Shown here: positions 1,792-49,367 of the stretch, in pieces
Layout: each line of letters starts with the position of its first letter
How positions within the stretch are numbered: the stretch's first letter is position 1
Source of the DNA: an uncultured Candidatus Saccharibacteria bacterium
GTDB taxonomy: Bacteria > Patescibacteriota > Saccharimonadia > Saccharimonadales > JAUPVS01
Length of the DNA stretch: 64,000 nucleotides
Assembly (NCBI GenBank): GCA_964410185.1
Contig: CAYPFM010000003.1
Span: forward strand, 18,437-82,436
Direction: 5' to 3'
Program-made: the position numbers and the translations under genes
Notes under the pieces: model-generated
The model's input: only the letters and a program-made list of their open reading frames with translations
What the model was told of the DNA's origin: nothing
Database searches by the model: none

Positions 1792-3303
1792 CTATTTTTT
1801 CTTGCGTAAACCGCGCTTGGGGCTCAAGCCAAAGCGAAGTTTTCGTGCGCCGGTAGCGGCGATCAACGGATTGGCGTTGACGTCGTAGAAGAAGTCGGGC
1901 TGTTCGTACTGATCGTAGGTCACCATCAGGGCGCGTGACTCGATCTGGCGCAGTGTCTCTAGTGAGACGGCTACCAAGATCAAAATACTAGTTCCGCTGA
2001 GGGCGATGTTGGTCTTAATAAAGGCCTGGGCCACGATTGGCAACAACGCCAGCACACCCAGCGACAGGGCGCCAAAGAAGGTCAAACGATTAACAATCTT
2101 GCCCAAGTACTTCTCGGTCTGGGCGCCAGAGCGCACGCCTTCGATAAAGCCACCCTGCTTCTGCAGATTCTCGGCGATTTCTTTGGTGTTGAAGGTGATG
2201 CTGGTGTAGAAGAAAGTGAACACAAACACTAAGAAGAAGTAGACAGTAGGATAAATATAGGCCTGCCAGCCCTCGGTGGCAAAGGTTTGGGCCGATGGGG
2301 TTTGGAACCACTTGATCAGGTTAGCGCCGAGGTGCTGAAGGTTGGCGCTCTGTGAGCCTTGCATGATTTGCCCGGCAAAACTCGGTACACTCAAGAATGC
2401 TACCGCAAAGATAATCGGCACGACACCGGCTGTAATCAATTTAATTGGCAGCTTGGTGGTCACACCGCCATAGGTACGGTTTCCTTGAATGCGTTTGGCG
2501 TAATGAACCGTGATGTTTCGGGCCGCTTCGTTAAGTTTGACCACACACACCGTCACTAACGTTACTGAGCCAAGCACGCCGATGGCATACCAAATCTGCT
2601 TTTGATAGACGACCAGATGATTGCCAATAACATGCCATTTGGCGCCGGCACTATCGCTGGCCGAAGCAATCAGCTGAGTGATTGTGGCTGGAAGACGACT
2701 GACGATACCAACGGTAATAATCAAGGAAATACCGTTACCAATCCCCTGTTCGGTGATCAATTCACCTAACCACATCAGCAACATCGAAGCACCAGTTAGC
2801 GCCGAAACCATCAAAACCCACTGCATCGGTGAACTGTTGGCGGTAATGTCGCCTAGGCCACCGATGCTTGAGGCCGACTGTCGCACCAAGTAAATGGCGC
2901 CAATCGACTGAATGATTGCCAATGGCAGCGCCAGAATACGGGTGTACTGGTTAATCTTCTTACGGCCAAATTCGCCCTCGTTATTGAGGGCTTCGAGCTG
3001 CGGGATTGCCTTAGTAAGCAATTGCATAATAATCGAGGCATTGATGTACGGACCAAGCCCAATTAGCATGATCGAGAAGTTGGCCAGCGCCCCACCCGAC
3101 AGAACATCAATAAAGCTCAGTAACGATGAGCTTTTGGCGGAGGTATAGATGGTTTCGAGAACCTGTTTAAGGGTCTCTGGACTACTGAGAGGAATAGGGA
3201 TGTGAGCCAAAACACGGAAAACCAGCAGCATACCAAGAACGGCCAGGACACGATTGCGCATGTCGCTGTCTTTCATTGATTTCCAGATTACTCTCCAGTT
3301 CAT
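1792..3303 (-). CDS. secY: preprotein translocase subunit SecY
   Basis: 503 aa polytopic membrane ORF placed directly after rplO as in the spc operon. It is longer than typical SecY and has a basic C-terminal tail. Confidence 0.93.
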   Translation of the reverse strand: MNWRVIWKSMKDSDMRNRVLAVLGMLLVFRVLAHIPIPLSSPETLKQVLETIYTSAKSSSLLSFIDVLSGGALANFSIMLIGLGPYINASIIMQLLTKAIPQLEALNNEGEFGRKKINQYTRILALPLAIIQSIGAIYLVRQSASSIGGLGDITANSSPMQWVLMVSALTGASMLLMWLGELITEQGIGNGISLIITVGIVSRLPATITQLIASASDSAGAKWHVIGNHLVVYQKQIWYAIGVLGSVTLVTVCVVKLNEAARNITVHYAKRIQGNRTYGGVTTKLPIKLITAGVVPIIFAVAFLSVPSFAGQIMQGSQSANLQHLGANLIKWFQTPSAQTFATEGWQAYIYPTVYFFLVFVFTFFYTSITFNTKEIAENLQKQGGFIEGVRSGAQTEKYLGKIVNRLTFFGALSLGVLALLPIVAQAFIKTNIALSGTSILILVAVSLETLRQIESRALMVTYDQYEQPDFFYDVNANPLIAATGARKLRFGLSPKRGLRKKK

Positions 3304-3387
3304 CGAGTTTTGTTTACCCTCTCACGCAATACGGTAGAATTAATGCTTTTGTAATTATACAAGAAACAGCCGCCGATTGCTGTTGTT

Positions 3388-3867
3388 TTATTGTTTTGCT
3401 TCGGTCTTTTTCTTGCTGGCTGGTCGGCCAACCTGAGCAACCTGTTCAAAACTACCACCGGCTTTTTTAACAGCAGCGGCAGCGGCAACACTTGCAGCCT
3501 GCAGCTTAACCGTTACCTTAGCGGTAACATCACCGTTAACAACCAGCTTGGCTTTGCAGAAAGGACTGCTAATGATACCAACTTGGGCCAAGACAGCGTT
3601 ATCGACAGTCTTGCCGGCAAAGTTATTCAACTGGCTTGTGTAGACAATTTCAATCTTGGCACGATGCGAGTTAAAACCGCGAAGCTTTGGTAGACGTTGC
3701 ATCAATGGTGTTTGACCACCTTCAAAGCCTTGTCGTACGCCGCCACCAGTACGTGAGTTTTGACCCTTGGTACCACGGCCAGCAGTTTTACCACCACCAG
3801 CGGCGATACCACGACCAAGGCGTTTGGCGCTCTTGTGTTTGCTAATATTTAGTTCGTTGTAGCTCAT
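3388..3867 (-). CDS. rplO: 50S ribosomal protein L15
   Basis: 159 aa with a Gly/Arg-rich N-terminus (KRLGRGIAAGGGKTAGRGTKGQ). The ATG overlaps the rpsE stop (TAATG). Confidence 0.95.
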   Translation of the reverse strand: MSYNELNISKHKSAKRLGRGIAAGGGKTAGRGTKGQNSRTGGGVRQGFEGGQTPLMQRLPKLRGFNSHRAKIEIVYTSQLNNFAGKTVDNAVLAQVGIISSPFCKAKLVVNGDVTAKVTVKLQAASVAAAAAVKKAGGSFEQVAQVGRPASKKKTEAKQ

Positions 3868-4472
3868 TATTTTTCATCCTTTGCGGCAGCTGGGACAGCT
3901 TTCTTAGAAGCGGTCTTGCTGGCTTTGGTAACCCAGTTGTCAGCTTTTTCGATGCTTTCCAGGGCAGCTAGAGTTGCGTAGGCAGTGTTGATCTTGTTGG
4001 CGGAGCCAAGTGACTTAGACAGGGCGTTGCGGATACCAGCAACTTCGAGGACAACCCGGACCACACCACCGGCAATCAGACCGGTACCCGGGCTGGCTGG
4101 CTTGATTAAGATGCGAGCACCAGAAACCTTGGCTTCGGCTTCGTGAGGAATGGTTTCTTTGTAAACTGGCACGGTAACGAGGTTCTTCTTAGCAACGTCG
4201 ACGGCCTTTGAAACAGCAGCAGTAACGTCTGCGCCCTTAGCGGTGCCGATACCAACGCGACTCTTGTGGTCACCAATGACGACCAAGGCGCGGAAGCGGA
4301 AGCGACGGCCACCCTTTACAACGCGAGCGACACGGTCAATGTGGACCACTCGTTCGTCGAACTCTTTTTCTTCTTTTGGCATATCGTTACGTGGACGGCG
4401 GTTATTGTTGTTTTGGCCACCTTGACGATTTTGATTCTGGCCTTGTGGACCATTGTTAGTAGTTGGGGGCAT
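3867..4472 (-). CDS. rpsE: 30S ribosomal protein S5 with an N/Q/G-rich N-terminal extension
   Basis: 201 aa. The S5 core ([27 protein letters not shown]) follows a roughly 40 aa low-complexity leader. Confidence 0.95.
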
Positions 4473-4474
4473 AA

Positions 4475-4831
4475 TTAGAACTCCAGTCCATTCTCGCGGG
4501 CTGCGTCGGCCAGCGCTTTAACACGACCGTGATACTTGCGGCCACTGCGGTCAAATGAAACTTTAACAATTTTCTTGGCAACTGCCTTCTTGGCAATTTC
4601 GGTACCAACCCAAACTGATTTTTCAGTCATTGAGCCAGTTAGCTTTTTATTGCCAACCGTGCTGACTGCAACGAGTGTGGCGTGGGTGGTGTCATCAATA
4701 ACTTGGGCTGACACGTGGGTGTTGCTGATAAAAACGCTCAGACGAGGGCGTTCAGGTGTGCCGCTGACTACCGAGCGAACGCGGTTCTTGCGGAGCTGAC
4801 GATTTCGTAATTTATGTGCTAATCGATCCAT
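4475..4831 (-). CDS. rplR: 50S ribosomal protein L18
   Basis: 118 aa ending ...[17 protein letters not shown], characteristic of L18. Confidence 0.95.
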
Positions 4832-27871: not shown

Positions 27872-28057
27872 AGAGAACAGTGCTCCTGCCTAAAATTGAT
27901 GATGATTAAATTGGTTTTATTTTTAGATTTTCGTTTCGCGCGCGAAGATCCTAAGATGGGATTTTGATGCTCATGGAGTTTTTTTAACAACCATGGCACG
28001 GCCCACTTACCCTACTTCTACACCCAGTTTGAGGGATAAGCAATTAAATGTCAAGAA

Positions 28058-28807
28058 TTATTTATCAGCACCTGGCAATTGGTTATCGATGGTGGTAAGA
28101 CCCCGGCGTATACCTTTGCGTCGTGGCTCAGGATATGGCAGTATGTCGCGTCGCAGCATACCGATATTGGCCCTGGAGCGAGTCTGGTCAACACGCGGAG
28201 GGGCTGGAAACGGTTGGTCTTGGGTGGTATCAGTAACCTCAAAACCCCTCTTTTCGAGTGCTGAGGCGACATCTGGAAGAAGCTGCGGCCAGGTGTAGGC
28301 GGTCAAGTCGCTATGTCGATCTCGCGTCAACAGATCAGCCATCACCAATGTCGTACCAACGCCCTGGCGACGGAATTCTGGTGCCACGGCAATCTCCCAA
28401 GCCCAGACATAACGCTTGCTTTGCATGTGCCACTTGACCGCTCGTGCCAAGCCACTACCTGAAACATTTTCGGCAGTATAGAAGTAACCAACAATCGTTT
28501 CGCCTGCTTGGGCGGTGACGACGTGCGGGTTGCGATACTCCTGGTTGGCGCGCATTTCGGCACCAACCATGACATTTGGATCGCGGTGAGTTTCGAAAAA
28601 TCGGTGTGGCAACTGCCATTGCGCCATCTCCTCTGGCGTCCGTCGATACTCTTCGGGAATGGTTGGGTCGGTCACTGCGGCGACCATGGTGCTATGTGCC
28701 AAGGCGTATATGCCTCGCCACTCGTCGCGACTGCGTTGTTCGGGAGTCGTAATCCGGTAGGTTAGGTCCTCGGCAGCAACTGCCTGAGCTTCTTGAGGTA
28801 TAAGCAT
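28058..28807 (-). CDS. GNAT-family N-acetyltransferase (substrate unknown)
   Basis: 249 aa containing the acetyl-CoA-binding motif A, IAVAPEFRRQGVGTTLV. The rest of the protein is not recognisable. Confidence 0.65.
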   Translation of the reverse strand: MLIPQEAQAVAAEDLTYRITTPEQRSRDEWRGIYALAHSTMVAAVTDPTIPEEYRRTPEEMAQWQLPHRFFETHRDPNVMVGAEMRANQEYRNPHVVTAQAGETIVGYFYTAENVSGSGLARAVKWHMQSKRYVWAWEIAVAPEFRRQGVGTTLVMADLLTRDRHSDLTAYTWPQLLPDVASALEKRGFEVTDTTQDQPFPAPPRVDQTRSRANIGMLRRDILPYPEPRRKGIRRGLTTIDNQLPGADK

Positions 28808-28846
28808 GCTTTACAGATTACCAAACTTCACCGTTTTAACCATGAG

Positions 28847-29467
28847 CTACTTCTTGGGTTTGGGTGGCGTCATGATGACTTCGTCAACTAAACCGTACTT
28901 TTTGGCTTCGGGTGCGGTCATCCACTTGTCACGTTCCATGTCTTTATGAATCACGTCCAGCTTTTGGCCCGTATTCTTAGCCATGATCTCTTCCAGTAAC
29001 TTCTTAACCCGCAAGCTCTCGCGTAAATCAATCTCTTGATCGGTCACTTTGCCGCGCGTACCACTGCTTGGCTGGTGGATCATAACGCTAGCGTTTGGTA
29101 ACAAGAAGCGCTTCCCTTTGGTGCCAGAACTTAATAGGAAGGCTGCCGCGCTGGCCTGAATACCAATCCCAACGGTCTGGACATCGGCTTTTACGAACTT
29201 CATGGTGTCGTAAATGGCCAAGGCGTCGTAGACGCTACCGCCTGGGCTATTGATATAGAGAAAGATGTCTTTGGTGGGGCTTTCGTTGTCCAAAAATAGG
29301 AGTTGAGCGGTAATAAGGTTGGCGGTATGCGGGTTAACATCCTCGCCCAAAAAGATAATACGGTCTTTTAAAAGTCGCGAATAAATGTCATAGGCTCGCT
29401 CGATACGGCCCTCGGTTTCGATAACAGTTGGGATCAGTGCTGCGTGTGGAGTGTTTGAACTTGTCAT
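28847..29467 (-). CDS. clpP: ATP-dependent Clp protease proteolytic subunit
   Basis: Contains [19 protein letters not shown] and the Ser-His-Asp context ([14 protein letters not shown]). I trimmed to the ATG at 29467 because the promoter -10 (29474-29479) lies inside the longer track ORF. Confidence 0.95.
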
Positions 29468-29473
29468 ACCCCC

Positions 29474-29511
29474 ATAATATCGAATTGGCAGTCTCAGGTC
29501 AAGAGTGCTAA
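29474..29511 (-). promoter_or_regulatory. clpP promoter overlapped by a CIRCE-like inverted repeat
   Basis: The minus strand reads TTAGCACTC-TTGACCTGA-GACTGCCAA followed by TTCGA-TATTAT-GGGGGT-ATG. The first repeat half matches CIRCE (TTAGCACTC-N9-GAGTGCTAA) at 9/9 and the second at 7/9. The -35 TTGACC lies in the spacer, and -10 TATTAT follows after 17 nt. Confidence 0.65.
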
Positions 29512-29665
29512 CATCAAGTTGTTGGCTGGTGCTTCGGGAATGGTGGAATTTGCCGTTTCTCTTCGAGTACCAGAGCTGGTTGTATCGTGATACTACCGGC
29601 TGGAACGGAGAAGAAAACAGCAAATTACGCCGTTTCTGAAGTGCCAGACAATAACTTGATGTTAG
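29508..29665. repeat. 17-bp inverted repeat (16/17) enclosing 124 nt between orf149 and the clpP promoter
   Basis: CTAACATCAAGTTGTTG (29508-29524) pairs with CAATAACTTGATGTTAG (29649-29665). The 29508 arm overlaps the CIRCE half-site. Confidence 0.6.
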
Positions 29666-29679
29666 GATTCTTGGCCTGG

Positions 29680-29694
29680 GTCAAGAGTGCTAAC
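29680..29694 (-). repeat. third copy of the GTTAGCACTCTTGAC box (orphan CIRCE half-site plus -35)
   Basis: 15-nt exact direct repeat of the boxes at 29498-29512 and 48648-48662. It overlaps the orf149 stop codon. No partner half-site lies at N9. Confidence 0.6.
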
Positions 29695-30139
29695 TTCCAG
29701 CTTGTACATGCTCAGCCGCGTTAGCCGTGGCATGCAAAGCTGATACTACAGAAAGTGGATTAAATTCCACCTCATGGAAGCCACGGGGGCCAGCAACAAG
29801 CCGATCGCGCGAGAGCTCATCATGATTTACGGCATGAGACAAAACTCGTTCACCACGAAGGTATGTAATGTGGCCATCCAGTTCGTCGCGCGAGAAATTC
29901 ACTGTTACGGTCTGCTCAGTAGCTTCATCGAGCAATAACTTCGTAACAACAATCCTGCCACCATCTGAGCCAGTATGAACGTCGAAAGTCCGGGGGTATA
30001 AACTAAATTCCCCATTTTGCCCGTTGAGCTGAACACGGTTAACGTGATGCTCTGACAAAGCCCAAAATGGACTATGGAACGGTTTAATTAGTCGCTTTGC
30101 ACCTGTCAGTTGTGGTTTTGGAAAGGCTAGTTCACTCAT
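29690..30139 (-). CDS. hypothetical protein (orf149) between tig and clpP
   Basis: 149 aa ORF with its own promoter, TTGCGT-N16-TATACT (30169-30174 and 30147-30152). The -10 lies 7 nt before the ATG, suggesting a leaderless start. No recognisable motif. Confidence 0.6.
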   Translation of the reverse strand: MSELAFPKPQLTGAKRLIKPFHSPFWALSEHHVNRVQLNGQNGEFSLYPRTFDVHTGSDGGRIVVTKLLLDEATEQTVTVNFSRDELDGHITYLRGERVLSHAVNHDELSRDRLVAGPRGFHEVEFNPLSVVSALHATANAAEHVQAGS

Positions 30140-30183
30140 ACCTACGAGTATAGCCTGCTATTGCTGGCACGCAAGCATAGGCG

Positions 30184-31467
30184 TTATTTTTTAGTAACGT
30201 AGCCGACGAGTTTGTCGATGGTTTTCTCGCTGAGAATACGCATTGCAATGTCTTGCTGATTCTCTGGCTTATCAAGCTCAGCCTGCATGGCAGGATCTTG
30301 ATATTGGCCTTTGAGCAGTTGGACACGCAGCTGAACTTCTTCGGGTGTCACCCGGATTCCCTCTTTATCAGAAATTTCACTCAATACCAAGCCGGCCTTG
30401 ACGCGGGTCTCGGCGGTAGCGCGGTTGCGCTTGCGGTGCTCTTCTTCGGTCACACCTTCTTCTTTAAGGTGTTCTTCCCAGGTCTGGCCTCTGTACATTA
30501 AGTTTTGGCGCTCTTCGCGCTCAGCGCTGTCGAGCTGCTCTTCTACAAGAGCTTCTGGTACATCGAGCTTACTCTTGCTGGTGATTTGTTCGAGGATTTG
30601 GTTCTGGAAGTCACGGTCGACTGCCTGCTGGCGCTCGGCGGTTAGCTGCGTTTTGATGTCAGCCTTGAGCTCGGCCAAGTTCTTAAACGGACCGACCTTG
30701 CTGGCGAATTCGTCATCGATTTTAGGTAATTCAATAGTTTGCACCTTGTTAACGGTCACCTCAAAAGTAACGGCTTTGCTGGCCAGGGCGGCGACGCCGT
30801 AATCCTTCGGGAAGTTCAAAGTAAAGGTTTTTTCGGCACCAGGCTTGAGGCCAATCAAATTATCTTCAAAACCAGGGATAAAGTTGTTACTACCCAGGAT
30901 GAGCGGATAATCTTTGCCGTCAGCGCCATTAACAGGGTTGCCCTTGTCGTCGGTGCCCTTAAAGTCGATTAAGACTTCGTCACCTGACTTAGCAGCCCGT
31001 TCGACTTCCTTTTTGTCGCCAGCCCGTTCGGCCAAACTTTTTAGAACGTCAGTAATATCAGCAGCGGTAACGGAAACCTTGGGCTGTTCAAGTCGCATCT
31101 TGGTGTAGTCGGGCAACGAGATGTCGCCAATCACGTCAACCTTGACTTCAACTTCTAGCAGGGTGAATGGTACAAACTTCTTAATGCTAACTTCTGGGCG
31201 ACTGACGGGACGAAGCTTCTCTTGCTTGATGGACTCGGCATAAAAGTGGTTAATAGCCTCTTCCATGACTTCGGTCTGAAGCGCGGTTGGGTCAAGGTTC
31301 TTTTCGATGACGGCCTGAGGGGCCTTGCCAGGTCGGAAGCCGGCCACTTTAACGTTCTTGCCAAGTGACTTTACAGCGGCTTGCTTAATGGGGCTTAGGT
31401 CCGCCTCGTGAGCAGTGAAGTTCAAAGCGACTGACGTAGTTGTGAGTTGAGATTTTTTTACATGCAT
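30184..31467 (-). CDS. tig: trigger factor
   Basis: 427 aa with an N-terminal ribosome-binding region (GFRPGKAP), a PPIase-like middle domain and a C-terminal domain. TATAGT lies 8 nt before the ATG. Confidence 0.93.
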   Translation of the reverse strand: MHVKKSQLTTTSVALNFTAHEADLSPIKQAAVKSLGKNVKVAGFRPGKAPQAVIEKNLDPTALQTEVMEEAINHFYAESIKQEKLRPVSRPEVSIKKFVPFTLLEVEVKVDVIGDISLPDYTKMRLEQPKVSVTAADITDVLKSLAERAGDKKEVERAAKSGDEVLIDFKGTDDKGNPVNGADGKDYPLILGSNNFIPGFEDNLIGLKPGAEKTFTLNFPKDYGVAALASKAVTFEVTVNKVQTIELPKIDDEFASKVGPFKNLAELKADIKTQLTAERQQAVDRDFQNQILEQITSKSKLDVPEALVEEQLDSAEREERQNLMYRGQTWEEHLKEEGVTEEEHRKRNRATAETRVKAGLVLSEISDKEGIRVTPEEVQLRVQLLKGQYQDPAMQAELDKPENQQDIAMRILSEKTIDKLVGYVTKK

Positions 31468-31508
31468 AGGTTCCGACTATACCAGAAAGCTCACCTCTTG
31501 GCCACCTC

Positions 31509-43604: not shown

Positions 43605-44951
43605 TTATTCTTTCTCTAAAAATTGATTTAGAGCTCCGCGCACGTCGCTGACGCCATGCAACAGAGCCGGCTTCTTGCCGCCACGCTGGACGGGCCCAAT
43701 AACGGCATCAAAGCCAAGTTTTTTGGCTTCTTCGATACGCTTGTCGATGTAAGGCACATGGCGAACCTCACCCGATAGGCCAACCTCACCAAAGACTACG
43801 GCATTCTGCTTGAGCTGAAGACCGCGAGCGGCTGAGCCAATGGCCAAGCAAATTGCTAGGTCGGCGGCAGGCTCGGTTATGCGCAAGCCGCCGACGACGT
43901 TAATGAAGATGTCCTGGTCGGCCAGATTAAGCTTGGTGCGCCGCTCCAACATTGCAACCAGTAAGTTGACCCTATTCAGATCAAAGCCGCTGGCGGTGCG
44001 CTTGGGATAGCCGTAGGAGGTCTTATTAACAAGGGCCTGCACTTCTACCAGAATCGGTCGCGACCCCTCCATGGTTGCCAGGACGATGGATCCATCGCTC
44101 ACCTGCCGCTCGGCCAACAAAGCTGCCGAAGGGTTTTTAACCGCTGTTAGACCCTTGTCTTCCATCTCAAAAATAGCCACCTCGTTGGTTGAGCCATAAC
44201 GGTTTTTAACCCCGCGTAAGACCTTAAAGCCACCGTATCGATCACCTTCAAGTTGCAAGACAACGTCAACCAAATGTTCAAGAACTTTTGGTCCGGCGAT
44301 TGAGCCTTCTTTGGTAACATGCCCTACAATAATCAGCGCCGTGTTGGATTGCTTAGCCGCGGCCGTTAACAGATGGGTACTGTTGGTAATCTGGCTGACA
44401 CTGCCGGGTGCGGAGCTGATGGCCTGACAAGCCATGGTCTGAATCGAATCAATAATAACCAGCTTGTAGGTGCCGGCGGCAATCGTGGCGGCAATATCAT
44501 CGGCACTGTTGCTGGTCGCGACCATCAGCTGTTTAGCGGTGGCGTGCAGACGCTCAGCGCGCATGCCGAGTTGATGAGCCGATTCTTCGCCGCTAACGTA
44601 CAGTACGGGCGCTTTGAGCCCCACGCCGTGGGCAATCTGTAAGAGGATGGTGCTTTTACCAATGCCCGGCTCCCCGGCAATTAGGTTCACGCTGCCGGCC
44701 ACCAAACCACCACCTAAAACTACGTCAACTTCGCTCAAGCCAGTCGCCAAACGCTTATGCAAGTCTTTGCTGGCCACATCTGTAACAGTGGCGGCTTTTA
44801 GCGATTTGCCGTTTTTAATGACCTGGTCGGCGGCAACCTGCAACTCTTCTTGGAGGGTGTTCCATTCCCCACAGGCGTAACACTTGCCGGACCAGCTGTT
44901 AGACTCGGCCCCACAGTTACTACACACATACCTCACCACAGACTTTTTCAT
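43605..44951 (-). CDS. radA: DNA repair protein RadA
   Basis: 448 aa with a zinc finger (CSNCGAESNSWSGKCYACGEW), Walker A (GEPGIGKST), KNRYG and a Lon-like C-terminal domain. TAAACT lies 6 nt before the ATG. Confidence 0.96.
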   Translation of the reverse strand: MKKSVVRYVCSNCGAESNSWSGKCYACGEWNTLQEELQVAADQVIKNGKSLKAATVTDVASKDLHKRLATGLSEVDVVLGGGLVAGSVNLIAGEPGIGKSTILLQIAHGVGLKAPVLYVSGEESAHQLGMRAERLHATAKQLMVATSNSADDIAATIAAGTYKLVIIDSIQTMACQAISSAPGSVSQITNSTHLLTAAAKQSNTALIIVGHVTKEGSIAGPKVLEHLVDVVLQLEGDRYGGFKVLRGVKNRYGSTNEVAIFEMEDKGLTAVKNPSAALLAERQVSDGSIVLATMEGSRPILVEVQALVNKTSYGYPKRTASGFDLNRVNLLVAMLERRTKLNLADQDIFINVVGGLRITEPAADLAICLAIGSAARGLQLKQNAVVFGEVGLSGEVRHVPYIDKRIEEAKKLGFDAVIGPVQRGGKKPALLHGVSDVRGALNQFLEKE

Positions 44952-45013
44952 ACTCTCAGTTTAACAAACAGATTCGCTTGCGGCGAATTCCGGTCGGTGC
45001 AGGCCGATAGCAC

Positions 45014-46033
45014 CTAGTTGGCCGTCTTGGACTCGATATGGCTGTTTAGCTCTTGCGAGAGGTTCTGCGCCTCAACGGCAATGGCGTTGCGCTTGGCAAC
45101 AATCTCGTTGTAAGTGGCAATTTGGCGTTTAGTCTGAGCAACCAACACATTGTAGGCGTTAATCTGCGCGTTAAAGTTGTCAACACTGGCATTGTAGGTT
45201 GACGTGTTTCCGCTGCTCAAGAGGCGGTTAAGCTCTTGGCGCTGTGAATCAAGACTGGATGAACGGGCCGTTAACGAAGCTTGGTTCTCTTCGATTTGTT
45301 TTTTAAGATCAGTCAGCTGCTGATCGTAGGCCGTAATTTGATCCTGGCGGCTCGTAAAGGCATTGCGGTATTGGTTGGCGTAGCCTACGACGGCTTGCCG
45401 ATCAGTAAAGTACTGCTTGTAATAGTTCTCCAGTGCGGGTGGCAAGTCAGCGACTTCCGTGCCAAAGATAGAGTGCATTTCGTTCACTAAATCATTCGGT
45501 TCGAATTTTTTGTAAGACTCAAAGGTGGCCAGTAAGCGCTTGTTATTTTGGATATTGTGATCGTAGTAGTTTTGCAGCATAGAATCGACGTTGGCGCGTT
45601 CTTTGGAGCTAAGTCGATCGTAAGCACTGTGCAGCATCTCGTGAGCCGCCGTCACCTCCTCTACCCCTTTTAGCTGTGGGTCAGATACACCGTAGATAAA
45701 AATGCCGCGTTGAGGTGGTTTGTAACATCCCAAAATAATCGTCTGCTCGCCACCGTTGTTTGGGCAGTTACTGTTGAAGTCGGCTTTATCTTGCACGGCC
45801 GGCCGGTTGACGTAAAAGTCGTGTTTGGATTTGGCCGTCATCGTAGTCGTTTCAGCCAGCGCGACAACATTCGCCGGTGCCTGATAGCCGCGCAGCCGAT
45901 ACCAATCGTAGATGGCCTGACGCTGCGCAAAGACCACGGCCACCATTGTGACCGCAATAAACAGCGATATAAGTCCTCGGGAGTGGCGTTTTGGTTGGGC
46001 GGTGGCTGTTGGAGTTGACGTCGGTTGGGGCAT
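45014..46033 (-). CDS. membrane-anchored protein with an HExxH motif and a Q/N-rich coiled-coil C-terminus
   Basis: 339 aa with an N-terminal TM helix, the candidate zinc-peptidase motif AAHEMLHSAY and a roughly 110 aa heptad-like C-terminal region. Confidence 0.6.
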   Translation of the reverse strand: MPQPTSTPTATAQPKRHSRGLISLFIAVTMVAVVFAQRQAIYDWYRLRGYQAPANVVALAETTTMTAKSKHDFYVNRPAVQDKADFNSNCPNNGGEQTIILGCYKPPQRGIFIYGVSDPQLKGVEEVTAAHEMLHSAYDRLSSKERANVDSMLQNYYDHNIQNNKRLLATFESYKKFEPNDLVNEMHSIFGTEVADLPPALENYYKQYFTDRQAVVGYANQYRNAFTSRQDQITAYDQQLTDLKKQIEENQASLTARSSSLDSQRQELNRLLSSGNTSTYNASVDNFNAQINAYNVLVAQTKRQIATYNEIVAKRNAIAVEAQNLSQELNSHIESKTAN

Positions 46034-46053
46034 TATGAGGCTAATTATACGGC

Positions 46054-48552
46054 CTACTCGTTAGCAGCGCTATACGCTAGTGCTTTGCCCCTGCCACTGG
46101 TCTTGGCGGCGACCTGAACAATGTGGCCTTTCTGATACTGCTCGTCGAGCATCTTCAGCGCGATGTGGTCCTCGATAGTATCTTGAATCAGGCGGCGCAT
46201 TGGGCGCACGCCGTTATGCGCATCGTAGCCCTTGTCGAGCAAGTACTGCTTGGCAGCCGGTGTTACCTGCAAGCCAAGCCCCTTCTTTTGCAAGCGCTGG
46301 CGCAACTCATCAAGTTGCAAGTCAAGAATCTTAAGGACATCTGGCTTGGTCAGGGCGCGGAAGACGATGGTCTTATCAAGGCGATTAAGCAGTTCCGGGC
46401 GCATCATTTTCTTCAGTTCGTCGGTAACTTTTTCTTTGTTGCGTTCGTGCAGGGCGTCGAGATCCTTCATGTCACTCTTGGCTTCGGCATGGAACCCAAA
46501 GCTGGCTTCCTTTTGTAGTTTTTCGGCACCTATGTTGCTAGTCATAATGATAATGGTGTTGCTGAAGTCGATCTTGCGGCCCTTGGCATCAGTCAGCACG
46601 CCATCCTCGAGAATTTGTAGCAACATGTTGAAGACTTCGGGGTGGGCTTTTTCGATTTCATCAAAGACAACTAGACTGTACGGCTGACGACGAATCTTAT
46701 CGGTCAGCTGGCCGCCATCATCATAGCCCACGTATCCAGCTGGCGCGCCTACCAGGCGCGACGTCGTGTGCTTCTCGCTAAATTCACTCATATCAATCTT
46801 GATCATGGCATCGGTATTACCAAAGAATTCCTTGGCCAAAACGCGCGCTAACTCGGTCTTACCAACACCGGTGGGGCCCAGGAAGACAAAAGAGCCGATG
46901 GGGCGTTGCTCGCTGGAAATACCCGAGCGGTTACGACGAATGGCCTTGGCCACGGCCGTGACTGCTTCGTTCTGCCCAATAATATGTTTTTGGAGTTGCT
47001 TCTCGAGGTTCAACAAATACTTGGCTTCGGAACGAATCACCTTACTCACTGGCACGCCAGTCATGCGGGAGACAACGTCGGCCACATCTTCACTGCTCAT
47101 AGTAATCCGCTTGCCGGCTTTGGTGGTTGATTTGAGTTTTTCAATCCCTTGAGACAGCTTACTTACCTGCGTCTTGTACTCGGCGGCCTTTTGGTAGTCA
47201 CCACTATCAGCCGCTTCTTCCATACGAACATTCAAAAGTTTAAGCTCTTTTTGTAGCTTACGCAGCTCAGGTGGCGTTTTGCCCTTGTCGACGCGCAAAT
47301 GCGCGGCCGTTTCATCAAGTAGGTCGATGGCCTTATCGGGCATGTAACGATCGGCGATGTAGCGCTTGGCCAGGGTGACCGTATCGTCAAGAACTTCGTC
47401 ACTTACTTTCACGTTGTGGAAGGCCTCGTAGTGTTTTCGCAAACCCTTTAGGATGGCGAGCGTTTCTGGCACACTGGTTTCGGGTACCTGGATTGGTTGG
47501 AAGCGCCGTTCGAGCGCCGCATCTTTTTCGATGTGCTTGGTGTATTCATCAGTTGTGGTTGCCCCGATTACCTGGATTTTGCCACGAGCCAGAGCGGGCT
47601 TGAGGATATTGCCGGCGTCCATGGCGCCTTCGGCCGCACCGGCGCCCACGATCAGGTGTAGCTCATCAATGAACACGATAGTCGACTTGTCAGCCTCGAG
47701 TTCGGCCATAACTTTCTTGAGGCGTTCTTCAAACTCACCACGATACTTGGTGCCAGCAATCATGCCAGCCAGATCAAGCATGACGATGCGTTTTTCGAGT
47801 AAACTGTCGGGGACATCTTCGGCGATAATACGCTGCGCCAAACCTTCCACGATTGCGGTCTTACCAACACCCGGTTCACCAATCAGAACCGGATTATTTT
47901 TGGTTCGACGATTCAGGATCGTAATCACACGGCGAATCTGCGGCTCACGACCGACCACTGGATCAAGTTTTTTGTCGCGTGCTTGTGCCGTCAGGTCGGT
48001 GCCATAAAAGTCGAGAGCAGTTTTGCGGGCTTTTTTAGAAGGACGCTTACGGGTACCAGTTTGGTCGGGGTTGTCTTCGTACTGTTGGCGGTTCAAGAAC
48101 TGCTCAAGTTCGTTCAGCAAACCGTCAACATTCACATTCATGTCCCTCAATAGTACCGTCGCGCGAGCATTCTTTTGGCTCAAGATACTGTATAGAATAT
48201 GCTCGGTACCGCAGAATTCCTGGCTATAGTCTTGGGCCACATCAAAGGCCATTTTCAAGGTTAGTTTGGCGGTTTCGCTCAAGCCCTTGGCGCCCATATT
48301 TATTACCAGGGTCTTCGGGGTAAGATTGAGTGCGAGCCGCGCGCGGTCCAGCGTAACGCCGGCGCCTTCGAGCATTTTGGCGCCCATTGATGAGTCTTGT
48401 GCAAGGACGCCCAGCAAAAGGTGTTCGGTGCCAACATAGGCACTGCCAAAGCTACGCGCAATGGCATCGGCGTGCTTAAGGCTGTGCACGGCGTTGTCCG
48501 TTAAGTGATTAACGAAATCGCTAAAATCGGCGTTTGAAGAGTTTGGCATCAT
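46054..48552 (-). CDS. clpC: ATP-dependent Clp protease ATP-binding subunit ClpC-like (class I AAA+)
   Basis: Clp N-repeat, two AAA+ modules ([18 protein letters not shown]) and a short UVR-like middle segment. I trimmed to ATGATG at 48552 (AAAGGTGG Shine-Dalgarno upstream) because the promoter lies inside the longer track ORF. Confidence 0.93.
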
Positions 48553-48622: not shown

Positions 48623-48661
48623 ATAATATCGTAATTGGCACTCACGAGTCAAGAGTGCTAA
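48623..48661 (-). promoter_or_regulatory. clpC promoter overlapped by a CIRCE-like inverted repeat
   Basis: The minus strand reads TTAGCACTC-TTGACTCGT-GAGTGCCAA followed by TTACGA-TATTAT. The repeat halves match CIRCE at 9/9 and 8/9. The -35 TTGACT lies in the spacer, and -10 TATTAT follows after 18 nt. About 45 nt are nearly identical to the clpP promoter. Confidence 0.7.
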
Positions 48662-48698: not shown

Positions 48699-49367
48699 CT
48701 ATCTGTCAACGTCAGGTGCCAACGCATGCCAGTCGCTACCCCAGAGCTGCACCATCGACCAATTAGGGTCAATTTCAAACTGGCAGACTGCCGCTAAAAC
48801 GCCGTCGCAATCTTCGGCGGTTAAAACTGGAGGCTCGTAGCCAATTTGACGGACTGCATCAATAACCGGAATAGCTGACTGATTTGGGTTGCGCAGATGC
48901 TCAGGCACAGCCCGATACTGGTCAATCAGCATGTCCTCAACTAAATCAGATACCGCATTCGGTACGGCAACTGGCGGCATTTCAGCCGAAGCCCAAACTC
49001 TATAGCCATCATGAGCAAGCGTATGAGCTCTGCCATCCAAAAAATCGAGGTCTGCATCACGGACATATGGTGAACCGTCACGATATAAGCTCATGCTAAC
49101 TTCAATAAGCGACTCGGTCCGATATAAATCAACCCTTTCTCCTCTTATCGCTTCAGCGCCTAAAGCGGTCGCTGCAACACGTTGGTCAAAGTCAAAAGAT
49201 ACCGACACGCATTCATCGGGACAAAATTGAACGAGTTTGCCAAACTTTTGTTTGCAGAGTTCAGTCAACTCTTGGGCTCGTTCAGTGGCTAGATTCGCAA
49301 GCTCAGCGTAAAACAGATGCTGCTTAGGCATTCGGTCACGAAATGGGTCGAACTCAAGATCAATCAC
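48699..49367 (-). CDS. hypothetical acidic protein (orf222) between nusA and clpC
   Basis: 222 aa ORF with a GTG start 17 nt after the nusA stop; the start is uncertain. No recognisable motif. Confidence 0.5.
   Translation of the reverse strand: MIDLEFDPFRDRMPKQHLFYAELANLATERAQELTELCKQKFGKLVQFCPDECVSVSFDFDQRVAATALGAEAIRGERVDLYRTESLIEVSMSLYRDGSPYVRDADLDFLDGRAHTLAHDGYRVWASAEMPPVAVPNAVSDLVEDMLIDQYRAVPEHLRNPNQSAIPVIDAVRQIGYEPPVLTAEDCDGVLAAVCQFEIDPNWSMVQLWGSDWHALAPDVDR

Follow-up and report, generated by a model that had tools for sequence, protein, structure and literature searches.

The inverted repeat ahead of clpP in a 64,000-nucleotide stretch of Candidatus Saccharibacteria DNA (referred to here, in its whole length, as the window) is very probably an HrcA-bound CIRCE operator which occludes the clpP promoter and unites clpP and clpC in one regulon with hrcA-grpE, dnaK and dnaJ, as judged from sequence comparisons. 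To our knowledge, hardly anything is known of how genes are regulated in Saccharibacteria and other CPR bacteria, and full-text searches of the literature retrieved no relevant paper linking HrcA or CIRCE to Saccharibacteria, Patescibacteria or TM7. The window contains, among other genes, a ribosomal-protein cluster, rpoBC, tig, hisS, recG, radA, nusA and dnaE.

Inspection of the minus strand bore out, base for base, the inverted repeat and the promoter elements that had been described at clpP by an earlier reading made from the sequence alone. The features of this region are the following:

28847..29467, minus strand: clpP (ATG at 29467), 206 aa, Pfam CLP_protease 4e-76, NCBIfam PRK00277 290 bits.
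29485..29511, minus strand: CIRCE-type operator of clpP, TTAGCACTC-TTGACCTGA-GACTGCCAA, located by consensus match.
29497..29502, minus strand: -35 hexamer of clpP, TTGACC, within the CIRCE spacer, located by promoter scan.
29474..29479, minus strand: -10 hexamer of clpP, TATTAT, 17 nt past the -35 and 6 nt ahead of the ATG, located by promoter scan.

From 29511 to 29465 the minus strand reads TTAGCACTC TTGACCTGA GACTGCCAA TTCGA TATTAT GGGGGT ATG, and with the adjoining bases gatgTTAGCACTC TTGACCTGA GACTGCCAA TTCGA TATTAT GGGGGT ATGacaagt. Compared with the CIRCE consensus used in this work (TTAGCACTC-N9-GAGTGCTAA), the left arm matches at 9/9 and the right arm at 7/9 positions, giving 16/18 with two mismatches and an exact 9-nt spacer, while an independent promoter scan scored TTGACC-17-TATTAT as a 10/12 promoter match. 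With up to three mismatches allowed, the consensus occurs twice in the window (64 kb) and in none of 100 dinucleotide shuffles; by our own arithmetic, about 0.001 sites with two mismatches or fewer are expected per window by chance. In the right arm, position 3 has changed from G to C, a substitution shared by few of the orthologous sites (3/72), so that the clpP operator may be bound with reduced affinity.

The second site is located before clpC, 19 kb away from clpP, and matches the consensus better than the clpP site:

46054..48552, minus strand: clpC, 832 aa, Pfam Clp_N, AAA, AAA_lid_9, UVR, AAA_2 and ClpB_D2-small.
48635..48661, minus strand: second CIRCE operator, TTAGCACTC-TTGACTCGT-GAGTGCCAA, one mismatch (17/18).
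48623..48652, minus strand: clpC promoter TTGACT-18-TATTAT, -35 within the CIRCE spacer, promoter scan 10/12.

The product is a ClpC-type ATPase with Clp_N, two AAA modules and a UVR motif. The layout is the same as that of clpP, with the exact 9-nt spacer, and at both promoters the operator takes in the -35 and part of the gap between -35 and -10, the right arm at clpP covering 9 of the 17 bases of this gap. The clpC gene has a leader of ~65 nt with a AAAGGTGG Shine-Dalgarno sequence.

Conservation was evaluated in related DNA found via the motif, ClpP, ClpC and DnaJ, which consists of Candidatus Saccharibacteria MAGs and unlabelled metagenome contigs. A ClpP-based scan of metagenome contigs provided 80 loci encoding ClpP proteins 75-95% identical to that of the window, two of which were set aside as they contained less than 40 nt of upstream DNA. 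A CIRCE with the exact 9-nt spacer precedes clpP in 78/78 of the relatives with enough upstream DNA, as would be expected if the site upstream of clpP were maintained in related genomes; it has no mismatches in 35 of these, one in 30, two in 12 and three in a single case, and begins 13-162 nt (mostly 24-60 nt) ahead of the predicted clpP start. In L035 and L001 the operator is identical to that of the window. Likewise, the clpC site is present in the four relatives with usable upstream DNA (L113, L114, L115 and L116; ClpC 80-92% identical), which represent three distinct sequences since L114 equals L115 upstream of the gene. In these loci the CIRCE lies 91-222 nt ahead of a conserved MMPN start, and the leader and the Shine-Dalgarno sequence are conserved as well; L116, with the same gene order around clpC as the window, comes from NCBI as a complete genome of 1.0 Mb (CP023991.1). 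No further CIRCE with up to three mismatches was detected at distances of up to ~6 kb from clpP among the 80 loci, and a search of 851 kb returned, besides the 78 clpP sites and the same site in L001, no more than the pair in the window and a single CIRCE in L014, a locus of Chloroflexota. At the sequence level, the attributes of a CIRCE element were all found, namely a near-consensus repeat, the 9-nt spacer, the location at the promoter of a proteostasis gene and conservation at orthologous positions.

The placement of the -35 inside the operator is a constant trait of these promoters. TTGAC lies within the CIRCE spacer in 72/72 distinct clpP promoters. It opens the spacer in 40 of them (type A, to which the window conforms) and closes it in 32 (type B, in which TTGACG reads into the right arm). 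A -10-like hexamer, TATACT most often, follows 16-18 nt past the -35 in 78/78 relatives, and an in-frame ATG occurs 4-10 nt past this hexamer in 53/78 (6-10 nt in 51, exactly 7 nt in 34). The remaining relatives have leaders of 19-144 nt, most of them, where read, with a visible Shine-Dalgarno sequence. The earlier description of clpP as a gene with a leaderless promoter fits with the majority: the window reads TATTAT-GGGGGT-ATG, the -10 ending 6 nt before the start codon, and clpP is probably translated from a leaderless mRNA, yet its closest relatives, L032 and L035, have a leader of 27-31 nt.

The presence of a GAAAGGT Shine-Dalgarno sequence in these two leaders, together with the GGGGG run directly ahead of the clpP ATG and the fact that the ORF can be extended to a TTG at 29623, would fit an alternative in which the operator is real and clpP has a leader, belonging to a longer transcript (by read-through from tig-ORF149 or with TTG 29623) and using GGGGG as a weak Shine-Dalgarno sequence. 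We consider this unlikely, though it deserves more credit than any of the other alternatives, as the GGGGG run is separated from the ATG by only 1-2 nt, the upstream extension shows no conservation and an independent gene call on L001 picks the same ATG. In addition to the predominance of closely spaced ATG codons among the clpP relatives, leaderless geometry is also displayed by hrcA and dnaJ of other Saccharibacteria, which argues for a leaderless clpP.

Neither hrcA nor groES/EL nor dnaK was found within the 64-kb window by family searches and tblastn, and when HrcA of B. subtilis and the GroES, GroEL, DnaK and ClpX proteins of E. coli served as tblastn queries, neither the window nor the clpP and dnaJ loci yielded hrcA, groES or clpX. 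Outside the window, its ClpP sequence was matched on a single contig of 2.6 kb. The chaperone genes were examined in five Saccharibacterial loci (L117-L121) retrieved by starting from a Saccharibacterial DnaJ, none of them from the genome of the window; the loci with hrcA belong to Saccharibacteria lineages other than that of the window and have a GC content of 41-46% vs ~50% in the window. L118, from an NCBI MAG, displays the order gmk-hrcA-grpE-x-dnaK...dnaJ and encodes an HrcA of 237 aa (3909-4622) which matches TIGR00331 (2.4e-52), Pfam HrcA (1.5e-18) and HrcA_DNA-bdg (3.5e-5); its TIGR00331 score of 178.6 bits is below the cut-off of 197.2, and its winged helix-turn-helix (wHTH) aligns to Thermotoga maritima HrcA 1STZ with 1.1e-14. 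The hrcA gene is also present in L120 (Nanoperiomorbaceae; 2912-3706) and at the start of L121 (Nanogingivalis). In Southlakia epibionticum, described as genetically tractable, SEML1_0720 contains the HrcA Pfam domains and adjoins grpE and dnaK, its annotation being no more specific than "transcriptional regulator" (Wang et al., 2023; PMC10633639). The Saccharibacterial HrcA proteins are short, 237-264 aa vs 338 aa in T. maritima 1STZ, that is, ~100 aa below the canonical length. In the supplement of that study, the ECOD assignments comprise no domain of 1STZ other than the winged-helix and the sensor domain (PMC10633639), suggesting that the inserted domain of HrcA is absent.

In these loci a CIRCE with a 9-nt spacer is located directly before hrcA (L118, L120), dnaK (L117-L121) and dnaJ (L117-L121), so that, in these other Saccharibacteria, hrcA-grpE, dnaK and dnaJ do carry the motif, as anticipated if clpP shares its operator with the chaperone genes. 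TTGAC is within the spacer at most of these operators, and hrcA and dnaJ have the leaderless geometry mentioned above. The arms GAGTGCCAA and GACTGCTAA occur as variants at dnaK and hrcA operators, and the "CCAA" and "GACTGC" arm variants of the window recur at the canonical targets in L117-L121. The occurrence of the operator before hrcA itself suggests that the Saccharibacterial HrcA is autoregulated, and the presence of the same operator at hrcA, dnaK and dnaJ, which is the comparative signature of an autoregulated HrcA regulon, points to the two sites of the window as members of that regulon.

It is conceivable that the palindrome is merely CIRCE-like and is read by another transcription factor, considering that hrcA was not seen in the window and that the HrcA of Saccharibacteria is a truncated protein which does not reach the equivalog cut-off of NCBIfam. 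This seems improbable given that the motif agrees with the canonical CIRCE at 16-18 of the 18 positions, that the wHTH of the Saccharibacterial HrcA is well conserved relative to 1STZ and that CIRCE elements are located directly upstream of hrcA, dnaK and dnaJ in Saccharibacteria, the classic arrangement of an autoregulated HrcA regulon.

Other observations were made at the chaperone genes. The dnaK gene has a tandem CIRCE pair in L118 (5865-5938) and L119 (80-153), the two elements being 47 nt apart from start to start; the first brackets the -35 and the second, by its position, would be in the transcribed leader. A scan of genome contigs used a query spacer of 10 nt (TTGAC plus 5 N), which is unable to match 9-nt sites; it detected a CIRCE-like repeat with a 10-nt spacer, TTAGCACTC-TTGACCnnnn-GACTGCTAA, before dnaJ in 29 Saccharibacteria species (L002-L013, L015-L031). 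Examples are L003 5939-5966, L004 6767-6794 and L023 1487-1514, the arms being perfect in L004 and L023. Most of the target genes are leaderless and encode a dnaJ-like protein of 298 aa, and many of the species are gut or rumen MAGs. The same scan also matched one groES site of Chloroflexota. A homologue search with a C-terminal fragment of DnaK retrieved only contig-edge fragments without upstream context, a scan of viral contigs for the operator gave no match, and the TM7x transcriptome supplement lists chaperones and contains no TM7x clp or hrcA entries.

The pattern of variation within the arms suggests recognition by a protein. Across the 72 distinct clpP promoters the cores of the two arms (GCACTC and GAGTGC) hardly vary, with ~2 bits per position, and the flanks have 0-0.3 bits. 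The variants tolerated are T/C at position 1, A/G at 3, G/C at 21 (3/72), T/C at 25 (23/72) and A/G at 27, indicating that the "CCAA" right arm of the window is common and that its GAC is rare and recurrent. Symmetric arm positions do not covary (A3/C25 in 20 sites and G3/C25 in three, Fisher p=1), and this absence of compensatory changes indicates that selection acts on the sequence, as in protein recognition, and not on a hairpin. The location of the repeat just 3' of another gene might be taken as a sign that it forms a hairpin in DNA or RNA, serving as a terminator or attenuator of the tig/ORF149 transcript or as an mRNA stability element, and an effect on mRNA stability has been reported for CIRCE elements in 5' UTRs of B. 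subtilis. We find this reading very improbable and reject it: the scan predicted no terminator-like site at clpP or clpC, there is no T-run past the repeat, the arm sequences are invariant beyond what complementarity alone would demand, the clpP site of the window has two unpaired positions and the predicted transcription start of clpP is downstream of the repeat. That the site is a chance match or a functionless decaying relic, as its two right-arm mismatches and a decayed copy 182 nt upstream might suggest, is contradicted by the conservation data and highly implausible given the low chance expectation, the 78/78 orthologous sites with invariant arm cores between random flanks and the identical operator in L035.

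This decayed tandem copy of the operator and promoter (29659..29693, minus strand) reads TTAGCACTC-TTGACC-N14-TAACAT, has no right arm and overlaps the TAG stop codon of ORF149. The same copy exists in the closest relatives, L032 (~2971-3005) and L035 (~955-989); in L032 a right arm is still visible (GTGCTAA), 4 nt too close, suggesting a duplication followed by a small deletion.

Based on the available evidence, a model can be proposed in which an HrcA dimer would bind the CIRCE operator at the sigma-70-type promoter of clpP, the half-sites flanking the -35 and the right one filling most of the -35/-10 gap. As the operator brackets the -35 and extends its right arm into this gap, bound HrcA should exclude RNA polymerase. 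Upon proteotoxic stress HrcA would lose its activity and clpP and clpC would be released together with the chaperone genes, clpP giving rise to a leaderless mRNA that starts at or beside the ATG and clpC being expressed from the same operator-promoter module with a normal leader. In Bacillus the activity of HrcA depends on GroEL. It is from sequence that we infer the binding of HrcA, the repression of the genes, the stress signal and the start of transcription. The proposal made from the single clpP site, namely that the HrcA-type regulon of this organism includes the Clp protease genes and acts by promoter occlusion, gains support from the conservation of the site and from the operators at the chaperone genes.

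The system resembles the class I CIRCE operons (hrcA-grpE-dnaK-dnaJ and groESL of B. subtilis) in its 9-nt arms, 9-nt spacer and promoter-proximal position, and in that the cognate repressor family is present in Saccharibacteria and appears to be autoregulated. It differs from them in its targets, which are the protease genes clpP and clpC, in the probably leaderless transcript, in the -35 embedded in the operator spacer and in a repressor which in Saccharibacteria is ~100 aa shorter. In the Bacillus operons, CIRCE is located at the transcription start site or 3' of it. Concerning the arms, the CIRCE variant of Desulfovibrio groESL, cTgGCACTC-N9-GAGTGCcAA, with G at 3 and C at 25, has the "CCAA" right arm found at both sites of the window, in this case in Proteobacteria (PMC545781, Table 8); according to the same article, groESL is the only target of HrcA that is constant across other phyla (PMC545781).

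The control of clp genes by HrcA has precedents in Firmicutes, so the view in the sequence-only reading that CIRCE/HrcA classically controls groESL and dnaK operons overstates the unusualness of the arrangement. The clpP gene of Streptococcus salivarius is reported to be under dual CtsR and HrcA control (Chastanet and Msadek, 2003, as cited in another paper) and clpL of Lactobacillus gasseri is reported to be controlled by HrcA; both are, as here, clp genes under HrcA/CIRCE. These organisms are Firmicutes which have CtsR too, usually as the dominant regulator, whereas no CtsR box was detected above chance in the window, and the Firmicutes precedents concern single species while the putative HrcA-clp arrangement is clade-wide here. 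The CtsR operators of Firmicutes clp genes, direct repeats of the type RGTCAAANANRGTCAAA, fulfil the same role of stress-responsive repression of clpP and clpC promoters and differ from the CIRCE elements in the DNA motif and the repressor family. Searching the window for this box with up to three mismatches gave five matches vs 6.75 expected, none near clpP or clpC, and control of the clp genes by CtsR was rejected with boxes at chance level. The absence of CtsR boxes above chance, together with that of ctsR-mcsAB ahead of clpC in the window, suggests that HrcA is the sole recognisable control of the clp genes.

What appears to be new is the lineage, as part of CPR/Saccharibacteria, and the clade-wide use of clpP and clpC as putative HrcA targets, apparently without CtsR, along with a -35 which invariably lies within the spacer and frequent, predicted leaderless transcripts; this remains an extension of the well-known HrcA/CIRCE system and not a new mechanism. 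The analysis provides a concrete candidate regulon for the phylum (hrcA-grpE, dnaK, dnaJ, clpP and clpC) with a precisely defined operator, and the consistent promoter layout (-35 TTGAC, -10 TATAMT, frequent leaderless starts) could improve the annotation of promoters and start codons. A Clp protease that answers to the repressor of the chaperones, at promoters where no CtsR motif was detected, fits with regulatory consolidation in reduced genomes. It can be speculated, with chances that we would place slightly short of even, that a truncated HrcA is the single master repressor of the Saccharibacterial proteostasis network, comprising the chaperones and ClpCP, and that it acts via a fused operator-promoter cassette and, in these reduced genomes, fills the roles which CtsR, sigma-32 or ClgR have in other bacteria. 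If this holds true, the cassette would be one in which the -35 is always inside the CIRCE spacer and the mRNAs are often leaderless, read by an HrcA apparently devoid of the inserted domain.

Some features of the gene neighbourhoods complete the description. The order tig-clpP-clpX is a common one. No clpX adjoins clpP in the window or occurs within ~6 kb of it in the 80 relatives (L032-L111); in the window (region 28000-31500) clpP is followed by a gene for a GNAT acetyltransferase and then by rpoB. The tig gene is present in the loci of more than 60 relatives and, where positions are given, lies just upstream of the CIRCE-clpP module. ORF149 (29690-30139, minus strand), between tig and clpP, has no Pfam or NCBIfam match, and its homologues among the fetched loci are limited to the window, L001 and, weakly, L032 (27% identity).

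Between nusA and the clpC operator the window contains an ORF of 222 aa with a GTG start (48699-49367, minus strand) for which neither a family match nor a homologue in the fetched loci was found; it is explained either by an insertion of ~700 nt confined to this lineage or by a spurious ORF call. The annotated gene preceding clpC in L113-L116 is nusA, barring an ORF of 61 aa in L116, and in L113 nusA ends ~20 nt ahead of the clpC operator. On the minus strand of the window, 43605-48552 contains in order clpC, a conserved ORF of 339 aa without known function, radA and a gene for a PIN/TRAM protein. The clpC-radA order resembles the Firmicutes cluster ctsR-mcsA-mcsB-clpC-radA, without ctsR and mcsAB, and the 339-aa ORF is conserved in L112-L116 with 48-62% identity.
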